From the IMG/VR virus record IMGVR_UViG_2698536379_000025: a stretch of 7,257 bases of DNA; one strand, written 5' to 3'. A program made the translations under genes and the position numbers. Source of the DNA: a virus. Its lineage: Duplodnaviria; Heunggongvirae; Uroviricota; Caudoviricetes. Positions within the stretch are counted from its first letter, which is position 1. Each line of letters starts with the position of its first letter. The notes under the pieces were generated by a model. The model saw only the letters and a program-made list of their open reading frames with translations. It was not told the DNA's origin and searched no databases. Of the stretch, positions 2,433 to 6,957 are shown piece after piece.

Positions 2433-2708
2433 ATGAACAAAGAAAATGTGATTACCCTGGACAATCCGGTCAAGCGTGGTGAGCAGGTTATCGAACAGGT
2501 CACGCTGATGAAACCCAATGCCGGGACGCTGCGCGGTGTCAGTCTGGCTGCGGTCGCGAACTCTGAAGTCGATGCACTGATTAAGGTGCTGCCGCGCATG
2601 ACGGCACCGATGCTGACCGAGCAGGAAGTCGCCGCGCTGGAACTGCCTGACCTTGTGGCGCTGGCCGGTAAGGTGGTCGGTTTTTTGTCGCCGAACTCGG
2701 TGCAGTGA
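2433..2708 (+). CDS. E: Tail assembly chaperone gpE (0-frame product)
   Basis: 91-aa ORF beginning MNKENVITLDNPVKRGEQV. Shine-Dalgarno-like GTGAGAAAA upstream. Stop TGA at 2706-2708. Lies immediately upstream of the tape measure gene, the conserved position for a frameshifted chaperone pair. Confidence 0.9.
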   Translation: MNKENVITLDNPVKRGEQVIEQVTLMKPNAGTLRGVSLAAVANSEVDALIKVLPRMTAPMLTEQEVAALELPDLVALAGKVVGFLSPNSVQ

Positions 2709-2860
2709 CGTTTCCGAAAAATCTCTCGGTCGATGACCTGATGGCGGATGTGGCAGTGATATTTCACTGGCCGCCATCAGAACTATATCCCATGAGCCTG
2801 ACCGAACTCATCACATGGCGCGAAAAGGCGCTCCGGCGAAGCGGAAACACGAATGAGTAA
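2433..2860 (+). CDS. E+E': Tail assembly chaperone gpE+E' (programmed -1 frameshift fusion, 142 aa)
   Basis: Slippery heptamer T TTT TTG at 2681-2687 lies 7 codons before the E stop. The -1 frame stays open from 2687 to TAA at 2858-2860, encoding ...VAELGAVTFPKNLSVDDLMADVAVIFHWPPSELYPMSLTELITWREKALRRSGNTNE. The total of 85 + 57 = 142 aa matches P2 E+E'. The E' stop overlaps the T start codon. Confidence 0.8.
2681..2687 (+). other. -1 ribosomal frameshift slippery site (TTTTTTG)
   Basis: Heptamer of the X XXY YYZ class, read in the E frame as GGT TTT TTG. The T6G-type slippery sequence is the established site for P2 E/E' and for the analogous lambda G/GT pair. Confidence 0.8.
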
Positions 2861-5300
2861 CAATGTAAAATTACAGGTATTGCTCAGGGCTGTTGACCAG
2901 GCATCCCGCCCGTTTAAATCCATCCGCACAGCGAGCAAATCGCTGTCGGGGGATATCCGGGAAACACAAAAATCACTGCGCGAGCTGAACGGTCAGGCAT
3001 CCCGTATTGAGGGATTTCGCAAGACCAGTGCACAGCTCGCCGTGACTGGTCATGCACTTGAAAAGGCACGGCAGGAAGCCGAAGCCCTTGCCACACAGTT
3101 TAAAAACACCGAACGTCCGACCCGTGCTCAGGCGAAAGTGCTGGAATCCGCAAAGCGTGCGGCGGAGGACTTACAGGCGAAATATAACCGCCTGACGGAT
3201 TCCGTTAAACGCCAGCAGCGGGAACTGGCCGCTGTGGGAATTAATACCCGCAATCTTGCACATGATGAGCAGGGACTGAAAAACCGTATCAGTGAAACCA
3301 CCGTACAGCTTAACCGTCAGCGTGACGCGCTGGCGCGTGTCAGTGCGCAACAGGCAAAACTTAACGCAGTAAAACAGCGTTATCAGGCCGGAAAGGAACT
3401 GGCAGGAAATATGGCCTCAGTGGGCGCTGCCGGTGTGGGGATTGCTGCTGCGGGAACGATGGCCGGTGTTAAGCTGCTGATGCCCGGTTATGAGTTTGCG
3501 CAGAAAAACTCAGAATTACAGGCTGTGCTCGGAGTGGCAAAAGACTCCGCCGAAATGACCGCACTACGCAAACAGGCGCGCCAGCTCGGCGACAATACCG
3601 CAGCCTCGGCAGATGATGCAGCCGGTGCACAGATTATCATTGCGAAAGCCGGTGGGGATGTTGATGCCATTCAGGCGGCAACGCCGGTCACGCTGAATAT
3701 GGCGCTGGCGAACCGCCGCACGATGGAAGAAAACGCCGCCCTGCTGATGGGGATGAAATCCGCCTTTCAGCTTTCAAACGATAAGGTCGCTCATATCGGG
3801 GATGTTCTCTCCATGACGATGAACAAAACCGCCGCCGATTTTGACGGCATGAGCGATGCGCTGACCTATGCCGCACCTGTGGCAAAAAATGCCGGTGTCA
3901 GCATTGAAGAAACCGCCGCAATGGTCGGGGCGCTGCATGATGCAAAAATCACAGGCTCAATGGCGGGGACGGGAAGCCGTGCCGTGTTAAGCCGCCTGCA
4001 AGCACCGACGGGAAAAGCATGGGATGCACTCAAAGAGCTTGGAGTGAAAACCTCAGACAGCAAGGGAAACACCCGGCCAATATTTACCATTCTGAAAGAA
4101 ATGCAGGCCAGTTTTGAGAAAAACCGGCTCGGTACTGCCCAGCAGGCTGAATACATGAAAACTATTTTCGGGGAGGAGGCCAGCTCAGCCGCCGCCGTGC
4201 TGATGACTGCCGCCTCAACCGGAAAGCTGGACAAACTGACCGCTGCGTTTAAAGCCTCAGACGGGAAGACCGCAGAGCTGGTAAATATCATGCAGGACAA
4301 CCTCGGCGGTGACTTTAAGGAGTTTCAGTCCGCTTATGAGGCGGTGGGGACTGACCTGTTTGACCAGCAGGAAGGCGCACTGCGTAAACTCACTCAGACG
4401 GCCACAAAGTATGTGTTAAAACTCGACGGCTGGATCCAGAAAAACAAATCACTGGCGTCAACCATCGGCCTCATTGTCGGTGGCGCGCTGGCGCTTATTG
4501 GCATCATCGGTGCCATTGGTCTTGTAGCATGGCCGGTTATCACCGGCATCAATGCCATTATCGCGGCAGCAGGCGCAATGGGGGCAATCTTCATGACGGT
4601 TGGCAGTGCTGTTATGACGGCCATCGGGGCGATTAGCTGGCCGGTTGTGGCCGTGGTGGCCGCCATTGTCGCCGGGGCGTTGCTTATCCGTAAATACTGG
4701 GAGCCTGTCAGCGCATTCTTTGGCGGTGTGGTGGAAGGGCTGAAAGCGGCATTTGCGCCGGTGGGGGAACTGTTCACGCCACTTAAGCCGGTGTTTGACT
4801 GGCTGGGTGAAAAGTTACAGGCCGCGTGGCAGTGGTTTAAAAACCTGATTGCCCCGGTCAAAGCCACTCAGGACACCCTGAACCGTTGCCGTGACACGGG
4901 GGTCATGTTCGGGCAGGCACTGGCTGACGCGCTGATGCTGCCGCTTAATGCGTTCAACAAACTGCGCAGTGGTATTGACTGGGTACTGGAAAAACTCGGT
5001 GTTATCAACAAAGAGTCAGACACACTTGACCAGACCGCCGCCAGAACTCAAGCCGCCACGTATGGCAGCGGTGGTTATATTCCGGCGACCAGCTCTTATG
5101 CAGGCTATCAGGCTTATCAGCCGGTCACGGCACCGGCTGGCCGCTCTTATGTGGACCAGAGTAAAAATGAATATCACATCAGCCTGACGGGGGGTACTGC
5201 GCCGGGAACACAGCTTGACCGCCAGTTACAGGATGCGCTCGAAAAATACGAGCGGGATAAACGTGCGCGCGCCCGTGCCAGCATGATGCATGACGGTTAA
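2853..5300 (+). CDS. T: Tail tape measure protein (P2 gpT-like)
   Basis: 815-aa ORF. The N-terminal half is coiled-coil-like and rich in A/Q/R/K. A long Gly/Ala/Ile-rich hydrophobic block (about nt 4449-4690) is typical of tape measure proteins. Located after the E/E' pair. Confidence 0.95.
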   Translation: MSNNVKLQVLLRAVDQASRPFKSIRTASKSLSGDIRETQKSLRELNGQASRIEGFRKTSAQLAVTGHALEKARQEAEALATQFKNTERPTRAQAKVLESAKRAAEDLQAKYNRLTDSVKRQQRELAAVGINTRNLAHDEQGLKNRISETTVQLNRQRDALARVSAQQAKLNAVKQRYQAGKELAGNMASVGAAGVGIAAAGTMAGVKLLMPGYEFAQKNSELQAVLGVAKDSAEMTALRKQARQLGDNTAASADDAAGAQIIIAKAGGDVDAIQAATPVTLNMALANRRTMEENAALLMGMKSAFQLSNDKVAHIGDVLSMTMNKTAADFDGMSDALTYAAPVAKNAGVSIEETAAMVGALHDAKITGSMAGTGSRAVLSRLQAPTGKAWDALKELGVKTSDSKGNTRPIFTILKEMQASFEKNRLGTAQQAEYMKTIFGEEASSAAAVLMTAASTGKLDKLTAAFKASDGKTAELVNIMQDNLGGDFKEFQSAYEAVGTDLFDQQEGALRKLTQTATKYVLKLDGWIQKNKSLASTIGLIVGGALALIGIIGAIGLVAWPVITGINAIIAAAGAMGAIFMTVGSAVMTAIGAISWPVVAVVAAIVAGALLIRKYWEPVSAFFGGVVEGLKAAFAPVGELFTPLKPVFDWLGEKLQAAWQWFKNLIAPVKATQDTLNRCRDTGVMFGQALADALMLPLNAFNKLRSGIDWVLEKLGVINKESDTLDQTAARTQAATYGSGGYIPATSSYAGYQAYQPVTAPAGRSYVDQSKNEYHISLTGGTAPGTQLDRQLQDALEKYERDKRARARASMMHDG

Positions 5301-5314
5301 GGAGGTGACGAAAA

Positions 5315-5794
5315 ATGATGCTCGCGTTAGGTATGTTTGTTTTTATGCGCCAGACGCTGCCACACCAGACCATGCAGCGTGAATCGGATTATCGCTGGCC
5401 GTCAAATTCCCGTATCGGTAAACGGGATGCCTACCAGTTTCTCGGTGTGGGTGAGGAAAACATCACACTTGCCGGTGTGCTTTATCCAGAGCTGACCGGC
5501 GGCAAGCTGACGATGACCACGCTCAGGCTGATGGCAGAGGAAGGCCGGGCGTGGCCGTTGCTGGATGGCACCGGCATGATTTACGGCATGTATGTCATCA
5601 GCAGGGTGAGTGAAACAGGGAGTATTTTCTTTGCAGACGGCACACCCCGAAAAATTGATTTTACGCTGTCGCTCACCCGCGTTGATGAATCACTGGCCGC
5701 GCTTTATGGCGATATAGGTAAACAGGCGGAATCACTCATCGGTAAGGCTGGCAGTATGGCAACTAAATTCACGGGTATGACGGGGGCGGGATAA
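5315..5794 (+). CDS. U: Tail protein gpU-like
   Basis: 159-aa ORF beginning MMLALGMFVFMRQTLPHQTMQRESDYRWPSNSRIGKRDAYQFLGVGEENITLAGVLYPELTGG. GGAGG Shine-Dalgarno at 5301-5305, 9 nt before the ATG. The stop overlaps the D start in TAATG. Confidence 0.9.
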   Translation: MMLALGMFVFMRQTLPHQTMQRESDYRWPSNSRIGKRDAYQFLGVGEENITLAGVLYPELTGGKLTMTTLRLMAEEGRAWPLLDGTGMIYGMYVISRVSETGSIFFADGTPRKIDFTLSLTRVDESLAALYGDIGKQAESLIGKAGSMATKFTGMTGAG

Positions 5795-6957
5795 TGCTGG
5801 ATACGCTGACATTTGATGCAGGCAGTACGCTGACGCCGGATTACATGCTGATGCTCGACAGCAGGGATATTACCGGCAATATCAGCGACCGTCTGATGAG
5901 TATGACCCTGACGGATAACCGGGGCTTTGAGGCTGACCAGCTTGATATTGAACTGAACGATGCCGACGGGCAGGTCGGGCTGCCGGTTCGTGGCGCTGTC
6001 CTGACGGTGTATATCGGCTGGAAAGGTTTTGCCCTGGTATGCAAAGGGAAATTTACCGTTGATGAGGTTGAACACCGGGGCGCACCGGATGTGGTCACCA
6101 TCCGCGCCCGGAGTGCAGATTTTCGCGGGACGCTCAATTCCCGCCGGGAAGGCTCCTGGCATGACACCACGCTCGGTGCGATTGTTGAAGCGATAGCCTC
6201 CCGTAACAGGCTGGAAGCCAGTGTCGCGCCGTCACTGGCCGGAATTAAAATCCCGCACATCGACCAGTCGCAGGAGTCTGATGCGAAATTTCTGACCCGT
6301 CTTGCAGAACGCAACAGCGGTGAGGTGTCGGTAAAAATGGGAAAACTGCTGTTTCTCAAAGCGGGGCAGGGGGTGACGGCCAGCGGTAAAAAAATCCCGC
6401 AGGTCACCATCACCCGCAGCGACGGTGACCGCCATCATTTTGCGATTGCTGACCGTGGAGCCTACACCGGCGTAACGGCAAAGTGGTTACACACCAAAGA
6501 CCCGAAGCCGCAAAAGCAGAAGGTAAAACTGAAACGCAAAAAGAAAGAGAAACACCTGCGCGCACTGGAGCACCCGAAAGCGAAACCGGTCACGCAGAAG
6601 AAAGCGCCAAAAGTACCGGAAGCGCGCGAAGGTGAATACATGGCAGGTGAGGCTGACAATGTTTTTGCCCTGACCACGGTATATGCCACGAAAGCGCAGG
6701 CCATGCGCGCCGCTCAGGCGAAGTGGGATAAACTGCAACGGGGCGTTGCGGAGTTCTCCATCAGCCTGGCTACCGGTCGGGCTGATATTTACACGGAAAC
6801 ACCGGTTAAAGTGTCAGGCTTTAAGCGCGTCATAGACGAGCAGGACTGGACAATCACTAAGGTGACACATTTTCTGAATAATAGCGGCTTCACGACGTCC
6901 TTAGAGCTTGAGGTCAGGCTTTCTGATGTGGAGTACGAAACAGAAGATGATGAGTGA
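5794..6957 (+). CDS. D: Tail protein gpD-like (late control gene D family; baseplate hub, VgrG N-terminal-like fold)
   Basis: 387-aa ORF beginning MLDTLTFDAGSTLTPDYMLMLDSRDITGNISD. Its ATG at 5794 overlaps the U stop. Contains a lysine-rich segment at about 6496-6636. Confidence 0.9.
   Translation: MLDTLTFDAGSTLTPDYMLMLDSRDITGNISDRLMSMTLTDNRGFEADQLDIELNDADGQVGLPVRGAVLTVYIGWKGFALVCKGKFTVDEVEHRGAPDVVTIRARSADFRGTLNSRREGSWHDTTLGAIVEAIASRNRLEASVAPSLAGIKIPHIDQSQESDAKFLTRLAERNSGEVSVKMGKLLFLKAGQGVTASGKKIPQVTITRSDGDRHHFAIADRGAYTGVTAKWLHTKDPKPQKQKVKLKRKKKEKHLRALEHPKAKPVTQKKAPKVPEAREGEYMAGEADNVFALTTVYATKAQAMRAAQAKWDKLQRGVAEFSISLATGRADIYTETPVKVSGFKRVIDEQDWTITKVTHFLNNSGFTTSLELEVRLSDVEYETEDDE

Follow-up and report, generated by a model that had tools for sequence, protein, structure and literature searches.

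The -1 frameshift in tail gene E of bacteriophage P2 is said to have been placed at around 10% by Christie, Temple, Bartlett and Goodwin in 2002 (J Bacteriol 184:6522), who are also said to have found E' essential. The corresponding gpG/gpGT frameshift of bacteriophage lambda was reportedly described by Levin, Hendrix and Casjens in 1993 and by Xu, Hendrix and Duda in 2004, 2013 and 2014. In P2, a shift at TTTTTTG yields a 91-residue E and a 142-residue E+E' (PMC3091744, citing Christie et al. 2002), and the site operates without a downstream hairpin (PMC3091744). The P2 shift is counted among the conserved tail chaperone frameshifts of the lambda G/GT type, the ORFs of which show low sequence similarity between different phages (PMC5009743), and its efficiency is given as two to three times the ~1:30 of lambda (PMC5009743, citing Christie et al. 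2002). The RefSeq record of P2 (NC_001895; P2p25/P2p26) places E at 19430-19705 and joins the E+E' coding sequence from two pieces spanning 19430-19857; the note attached to this entry reads 'shares amino terminus with gpE; -1 frameshift; essential tail protein'. The same record also marks the base of the shift, with a misc_feature 'site of -1 translational frameshift'.

Outside phage tails, the frameshift signals of E. coli dnaX and of IS911 and IS3 combine a tandem-slippage heptamer with an upstream Shine-Dalgarno (SD)-like element, and Sharma et al. 2014 describe the type and spacing of that element as experimentally stimulatory there. The heptamer found in P2 performs poorly in the systematic E. 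coli series of the same study. U_UUU_UUG is among the weaker heptamers there, supporting 0.118% -1 frameshifting in reporters without a stimulator, 0.247% when combined with the IS911 SD and stem-loop, and 0.765% when combined with the IS3 pseudoknot (Sharma et al. 2014).

Here we analyse a stretch of 7,257 nucleotides of tailed phage DNA (IMG/VR record IMGVR_UViG_2698536379_000025), referred to in its entirety as the window. A sequence-only reading of the window had proposed a programmed -1 frameshift that yields E and a minor E+E' homologous to those of P2. The P2 record, the literature, Pfam and comparative tests all agree with that proposal. The arrangement as a whole is almost certainly explained by the P2 E/E+E' -1 recoding site, carried within a P2-like prophage tail operon.

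Results

The window is a P2-like tail operon

All features of the window lie on the plus strand. A serine recombinase (invertase) gene (1-594) stands directly upstream of FI, the tail sheath gene (654-1844), and is followed through FI by the tail tube gene FII (1857-2375), the tail assembly chaperone gene E (2433-2708) with its -1-frame extension E' (2687-2860), the tape measure gene T (2853-5300), U (5315-5794), D (5794-6957) and ogr, which extends as far as the window end. Recombinase, FI, FII, U, D and ogr are assigned from the ORF list and Pfam, FII by its match to Phage_tube. T is an ORF encoding an 815-residue tail tape measure protein, the presumed client of E and E+E', and is identified by Pfam PhageMin_Tail (E = 2.4e-45) and by the P2 annotation of T. 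E, with E', has FII, the tail tube gene, on one side and T, the tape measure gene, on the other, in the order known from P2.

A megablast search with 2380-2960 returned 74 phage records at 95-99% identity, all of them P2-like Peduovirus phages of Escherichia, Yersinia and Salmonella. Window-related sequence is found in 2873 of 5426 complete E. coli genomes, and in 1558 of those a single match covers at least 80% of the window, the best matches being ~98% identical. The source element is a P2-like (Peduovirus) prophage tail operon of a very common type. A Rfam scan of the entire window returned no family, and a PDB sequence search with E+E' returned no solved relative.

Alignment to P2 NC_001895 shows that 2576-2900 is identical save for one base, 2785, where CTA stands against CTG; both encode Leu and the change is synonymous in the -1 frame. 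The proposed homology to P2 E+E' is borne out by this near identity. Across the whole of E, the nucleotide sequence departs from that of P2 E (the counterpart at 19430-19705) by a handful of differences, most of them silent. The element is nonetheless not P2 itself, being ~98% identical overall and having the recombinase gene at the position upstream of FI that the Z/fun gene occupies in P2, and these differences in overall identity and upstream gene leave the recoding site unaffected. Because the sequence is essentially the same, the result reported for P2, in which the fusion is made at a set frequency and is essential, should transfer to the window.

The slippery heptamer is in register and precedes an open -1 frame

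The E frame, which starts at 2433, reads GG-T TTT TTG at 2681-2687 in the X XXY YYZ register, and the base marked as the frameshift site in the P2 record is equivalent to this heptamer. Downstream of TTG, six sense codons (SPNSVQ) precede the TGA at 2706-2708. The earlier description of T TTT TTG, with the E stop as the seventh codon after TTG, proves correct in both coordinates and register. From G2687 the -1 frame reads VAELGAVTFPKNLSV...RRSGNTNE, comprising 57 codons ahead of the TAA at 2858-2860, and when joined to E codons 1-85 it gives a predicted E+E' fusion of 142 residues beside the 91 residues of the zero-frame product. Translation agrees equally with the claim that this open frame of 57 codons terminates within the T start region. 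The T start codon (ATG, 2853-2855) overlaps the end of E' by 8 nt, the junction at 2853-2860 reading ATGAGTAA, and the layout is the same in P2, where the start of T at 19850 and the end of E+E' at 19857 give an identical 8-nt overlap.

Both parts of the fusion have Pfam families of their own. E matches Phage_TAC_7 (E = 2.6e-12; 47 bits against a cut-off of 25), and the -1-frame part matches Phage_P2_GpE (E = 1.2e-21; 76 bits against a cut-off of 23) over fusion residues 104-139. That heptamer and open frame are a functionless coincidence might be argued from the frequency of such heptamers, as in-register XXXYYYZ sequences are not rare and number seven in the window's genes. However, the open stretch exceeds 33 codons after one of the seven alone, TTTTTTG at 2681-2687. 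On average the -1 frame of these genes stays open for 15.6 codons, and at least 57 open codons lie downstream of just 2.3% of their -1-frame positions. Also against coincidence stand the Pfam match of the -1-frame peptide (E = 1e-21), purifying selection in the -1 frame, and the retention of the arrangement from Escherichia to Burkholderia and Vibrio phages. We assign coincidence no probability at all, the comparative data presented below having already refuted it.

Selection changes frame at the heptamer

Close relatives were represented by 80 Enterobacterales chromosomal loci in which E identity is 62-100%. Their heptamer is T6G in 76 loci, T6A in three and T6C in one. Twelve distant phages were compared alongside: 186, Fels-2-like RE-2010, Burkholderia KS5, Ralstonia, Pseudomonas Sirocco, Aeromonas, Halomonas, Acidovorax, Stenotrophomonas Smp131, Vibrio MAR, Mannheimia PHL101 and Xuanwuvirus P88. 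T6G, T7 or T6C is present in 10 of these, with the lambda heptamer G GGA AAG taking the place of T6G in Mannheimia PHL101 and, tentatively, A AAT TTT at the equivalent site in Xuanwuvirus P88. Across close and distant relatives alike the X XXY YYZ register is strictly kept, and T6G is strongly favoured over T6C or T7 across the family. The third positions of the heptamer codons are invariant among 78 distinct aligned sequences (TTT in 78/78, GGT in 77/78).

The -1 frame could be read to its stop in 77 of the 80 loci, two others ending at contig ends and one having no readable stop within the locus. Stop codons interrupting this frame in relatives would have refuted the proposal, and the frame proved open in all 77. 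In 76 of them it runs to 57-58 codons, and in the remaining locus (L044) to 62. In the distant phages the -1-frame peptide ..DDxMADIAVIFHW..WRE.A..RSG.. is kept in 12 of 12. Upstream of the heptamer, the zero-frame codon-position entropy of 60 distinct sequences is 0.55/0.23/1.25; past the E stop, where only E' is encoded, the -1-frame values are 0.41/0.20/0.88. The entropy pattern thus switches from the zero frame to the -1 frame, and purifying selection therefore changes frame at the heptamer.

The same relatives bear on whether a frameshift is needed at all. A 51-residue ORF runs from GTG 2705 to 2860, and PGAP and many GenBank records list it on its own as a 'GpE family phage tail protein' or a hypothetical protein, which would make E' a separate small gene with its own start. 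The start-codon survey of the 80 relatives led us to reject independent initiation at GTG 2705: only two have a GTG at that position, and in 59 the -1 frame is free of ATG, GTG and TTG from the heptamer to the conserved MAD motif. The SD energy of GTG 2705 in the window is at background (-3.0). Moreover, the peptide encoded between the heptamer and the GTG position (VAELGA / VxxFGx) is conserved in relatives, the heptamer is invariant at synonymous positions, and a fusion is what both the curated P2 entry and the published accounts give. A separate E' gene is accordingly very improbable, and the stand-alone 51-residue E' of PGAP and GenBank is an annotation artefact.

An SD-like element lies upstream of the slip site

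Signals of the dnaX type have stimulators on either side of the heptamer, and both sides were considered here. Downstream, the fold of 2688-2770 is unremarkable (z = -0.64), matching the literature on P2 (PMC3091744), and a conserved downstream RNA structure was rejected as a stimulator on this evidence. Upstream, AAGGTGG at 2670-2676 forms a duplex of -8.4 kcal/mol with the anti-SD sequence, and values of -7 or below are reached in just 7% of 21-nt segments across the window. The element contains AGGTG and GGTGG, both on the SD-like list of Sharma et al. 2014, and AGGTG is located 6 nt upstream of the slip site, in agreement with the AGGKG/GGNGG and 6-17 nt criteria of that study.

Of 68 distinct close relatives, 61 have an SD-like motif of this kind, compared with a frequency of 13% at background positions; among the 12 distant phages, 8 have one. 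Its codons are also constrained at synonymous positions. The Lys codon of the element is AAG in 65 relatives and AAA in two, while other conserved Lys codons in E stand at AAA 49:AAG 17 and AAA 40:AAG 36 and Lys usage in the window's tail genes is AAA 91:AAG 36. The Val codon of the element is GTG in 70 of 77, and of 46 conserved codons the four that vary least in their third position are the three of the heptamer and the SD-like AAG. Presence in relatives and synonymous constraint are the reasons for listing the element as a probable 5' stimulator, and on these sequence comparisons its AGGTG probably helps the -1 slip. A search of the literature found nothing specific on an SD-like stimulator or on T6G efficiency in P2, which papers beyond the search may cover, and the P2-type cluster does not occur in the searched text of Sharma et al. 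2014.

The run of T residues raises a further account of the fusion, in which RNA polymerase adds one U on T6 and a subset of mRNAs encodes E+E' directly, with the junction GFF|VAELG. A one-base insertion would produce the identical frame change. A G·U-rich hairpin at 2660-2681 that adjoins the T-run was flagged as terminator-like and would perhaps help, its -10 kcal/mol in the window being reached by 0.8% of shuffles. However, the equivalent segment in relatives averages -4.75 kcal/mol, near the shuffle mean. Across 71 distinct sequences the hairpin pairs and covaries no more than shuffled controls do, and three of its central pairs are lost in 38-54% of the set. Being neither conserved nor covarying, the hairpin was rejected as a family-wide terminator-like or polymerase-slippage element. 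Six U also fall short of the run of ~8-9 at which bacterial RNA polymerase slips efficiently. In Mannheimia PHL101, G GGA AAG contains no homopolymer run and supports tRNA re-pairing; as a tandem-slippage heptamer of the lambda type, its sequence argues for ribosomal rather than polymerase slippage. The non-conserved hairpin, the strict X XXY YYZ register in all relatives and the Mannheimia heptamer together argue against polymerase slippage, which we consider scarcely credible as the source of E+E'.

The E' stop overlaps a weakly led T start

Each of the 71 distinct close relatives whose T start could be assigned has an E'/T overlap of 8, 11 or 14 nt; L044, with no assignable T start, lies outside the count. 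At all 71 distinct junctions a long ORF begins at an ATG or GTG ahead of the end of the extension, and ATGAGT at the T start is nearly invariant. The overlap is present in 8 of 12 distant phages and absent in the other four, namely Smp131, Vibrio MAR, Acidovorax Alfacinha3 and Mannheimia PHL101. The SD of T is the weakest in the operon at -3.5 kcal/mol, compared with -5.0 to -13.4 for FI, FII, E, U, D and ogr. It is near the background mean of -3.25 and is weak in relatives too (-3.0 to -5.6).

In a single-sequence minimum-energy fold, the T AUG and the E' UAA fall within a 7-bp stem (z = -0.87). When 46 relatives are folded as an alignment (-3.8 kcal/mol), this stem at the T start disappears and no pairs covary, and a conserved structure occluding the T start was rejected on that basis. 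Among the distant phages, the SD strength of T shows no correlation with overlap. Whether phages without the overlap compensate with a stronger T SD gave mixed results, the annotated starts in those phages being uncertain. Lambda H has the same 8-nt overlap with T (ATGGCTGA) yet a strong SD of its own, at -10.3 kcal/mol.

The sequence-only reading had gone on to suggest that T initiation is coupled both to E' termination and to the frameshift rate. When the weak T SD and the kept overlap are set against the exceptions among distant phages, the lambda arrangement and the lack of a conserved structure, such coupling is plausible for the P2/186 lineage.

Discussion

The window feature is the textbook P2 E/E+E' recoding site, already known, curated and experimentally characterised in P2. 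Its recognition here is a rediscovery: RefSeq curates the recoding event, Pfam devotes a family to it, and experiments on P2 demonstrated it in 2002. The practical value of the analysis lies in annotation, since E' is often called as a free-standing 51-residue gene from a non-conserved GTG in what is a widespread sequence. The SD-like element, the efficiency of the weak U6G heptamer and the T/E' coupling are minor leads for recoding specialists.

The comparative evidence is consistent with the following molecular model. Most ribosomes translating E would pass T TTT TTG and stop at TGA 2706, producing the 91-residue E. A minority would slip one base back at this site as tRNA-Phe and tRNA-Leu re-pair with UUU UUU, and would read 57 -1-frame codons to TAA 2858 to produce the 142-residue E+E'. 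The slip is probably aided by the SD-like AGGTG 6 nt upstream and would proceed without any conserved RNA structure on the downstream side. If lambda gpG/gpGT is a guide, the shared E part may bind the tape measure T and the E' domain may recruit the tail tube protein, in which case the slip would fix the chaperone ratio for tail assembly. Ribosomes at the E' stop would sit on the T start codon, and some termination-reinitiation onto the weak-SD T is plausible. The form of the slip would be written into the fusion itself. After tandem slippage the junction would be GFL|VAELG, within the peptide ...VVGFLVAELGAVTFPK, and after a P-site-only slip, or after insertion of a U by polymerase, it would be GFF|VAELG, within the peptide ...VVGFFVAELGAVTFPK.

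In reporters the heptamer is weak (0.12-0.77%), whereas the P2 site is reported at several percent (PMC5009743). Context effects, or a slip of tRNA-Phe in the P site while awaiting the UUG decoder, could account for the P2 efficiency. A more ambitious reading holds that the P2-type site exceeds the bare heptamer through the SD-like AGGTG and possibly a P-site slip of tRNA-Phe, and that ribosomes finishing E' are the main source of T initiation, which would tie T output to the frameshift rate. We regard this combination as unlikely. Neither of its parts came up in the literature searched, though other papers may treat them.

Compared with the signals of E. coli dnaX and of IS911 and IS3, the window is similar in pairing a tandem-slippage heptamer with an upstream SD-like element. 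Its spacing of 6 nt is at the short end of the stimulatory range (Sharma et al. 2014). The dnaX and IS911/IS3 signals have a 3' structure, whereas the window site is without a conserved 3' stem-loop or pseudoknot, and in E. coli reporters U6G is intrinsically much weaker than A AAA AAG (Sharma et al. 2014).

Closer at hand are the P2-like phages 186 (orf51/orf52, a P2 E homologue), Burkholderia KS5, KS14 and KL3, Smp131 and Salmonella RE-2010, which share T6G (T7 in Smp131), the conserved E' peptide and an annotated frameshift product at 45-74% E identity. Their overlap with T varies, being 4 nt in KS5 and 8 nt in 186 and RE-2010, and is missing from Smp131, where another ORF intervenes. P2 itself matches the window in heptamer, in products of 91 and 142 residues, in the 8-nt E'/T overlap and in the gene order FI-FII-E-T-U-D-ogr.

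With lambda the likeness is one of layout, which was checked directly in the lambda sequence: the window likewise has overlapping ORFs with a frameshift near the end of the first. Lambda gpG/gpGT takes the same position between the major tail/tube gene and the tape measure gene, the slip occurs 5 codons before the short-product stop in lambda and 6 in the window, and both extensions run 8 nt into the tape-measure gene (ATGGCTGA in lambda, ATGAGTAA in the window). The presumed role is also common to the two, with the short form coating the tape measure and the long form linking it to the tail shaft subunit (PMC5009743). The protein families differ, the window having Phage_TAC_7 and Phage_P2_GpE, as do the heptamers, G GGA AAG in lambda and T TTT TTG in the window. 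The SD of the tape-measure gene is stronger in lambda H (-10.3 kcal/mol) than in the P2-type T (-3.5 kcal/mol), and the reported frameshift efficiency is two to three times higher in P2 than in lambda (PMC5009743). The two arrangements serve tails of different construction, contractile in P2 and non-contractile in lambda.

Discussion

The slip site of the window, U_UUU_UUG (2681–2687, plus strand), is a poor −1 heptamer in E. coli reporters. In the systematic E. coli reporter study of Sharma et al. (2014), it gives a −1 shift of 0.12% without a stimulator, rising to 0.25% with the IS911 stimulator and to 0.77% with that of IS3. Yet among the relatives compared the same T6G heptamer is strongly favoured across the P2-like phage family, and the P2 frameshift site is reported to be 2–3 times as efficient as that of lambda (PMC5009743).

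Upstream of the heptamer lies an SD-like element (2670–2676, plus strand) that falls within the published description of a 5′ frameshift stimulator. Its codons are under synonymous constraint among the relatives, with AAG in 65 against AAA in 2, and GTG in 70 of 77. Among close relatives 61 of 68 carry the motif, as do 8 of 12 distant phages, compared with 13% of background positions; no mention of the element was found in the P2 literature searched. A G·U-rich hairpin (2660–2681, −10 kcal/mol) adjoins the T-run and was flagged as terminator-like. Neither conservation nor covariation of this hairpin was found among 71 relatives, which argues that it is probably incidental.

The −1-frame extension E′ is entered as a free-standing gene of 51 amino acids (2705–2860, start GTG 2705) by PGAP in RefSeq E. 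coli genomes and in many GenBank phage records, where the product is named either a 'GpE family phage tail protein' or a hypothetical protein. Just 2 of 80 relatives share GTG 2705, whose Shine-Dalgarno is at background level; the stand-alone E′ gene looks like a widespread annotation artefact.

A second, perfect 9-bp hairpin, CCGGTCAGC-CAG-GCTGACCGG, occupies 2385–2405 in the FII–E intergenic region. Phage 186 carries the annotation 'tI; partial terminator of pJ transcript' at the equivalent site, and the hairpin could keep E, T, U and D expressed at a lower level than sheath and tube. A simple terminator scan of the window passed over the hairpin, since it lacks a T-run on its 3′ side.

Directly upstream of FI, a gene for a serine recombinase or DNA invertase (1–594; Pfam Resolvase and HTH_7) stands in the position presumably held by Z/fun in P2. 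In E. coli ARS-C301 (locus L096, 1874–2970) the recombinase gene adjoins fragments of tail-fibre and fibre-assembly genes in opposite orientation, an arrangement that suggests a putative Gin/Cin-type invertible host-range segment.

The E′/T overlap is absent in the distant family members PHL101, Smp131, Vibrio MAR and Acidovorax Alfacinha3. Within the window a second stop/start overlap occurs at the U/D junction (5792–5796), where the end of U and the start of D share the single base 5794, so that overlapping junctions are general in this operon rather than peculiar to E′/T. At the site equivalent to the window heptamer, Smp131 carries a T7 heptamer (locus L085, 737–743) and Vibrio MAR a T6C heptamer (L087, 734–740), while Mannheimia phage PHL101 has G GGA AAG (L088, 782–788), the heptamer also used by lambda.
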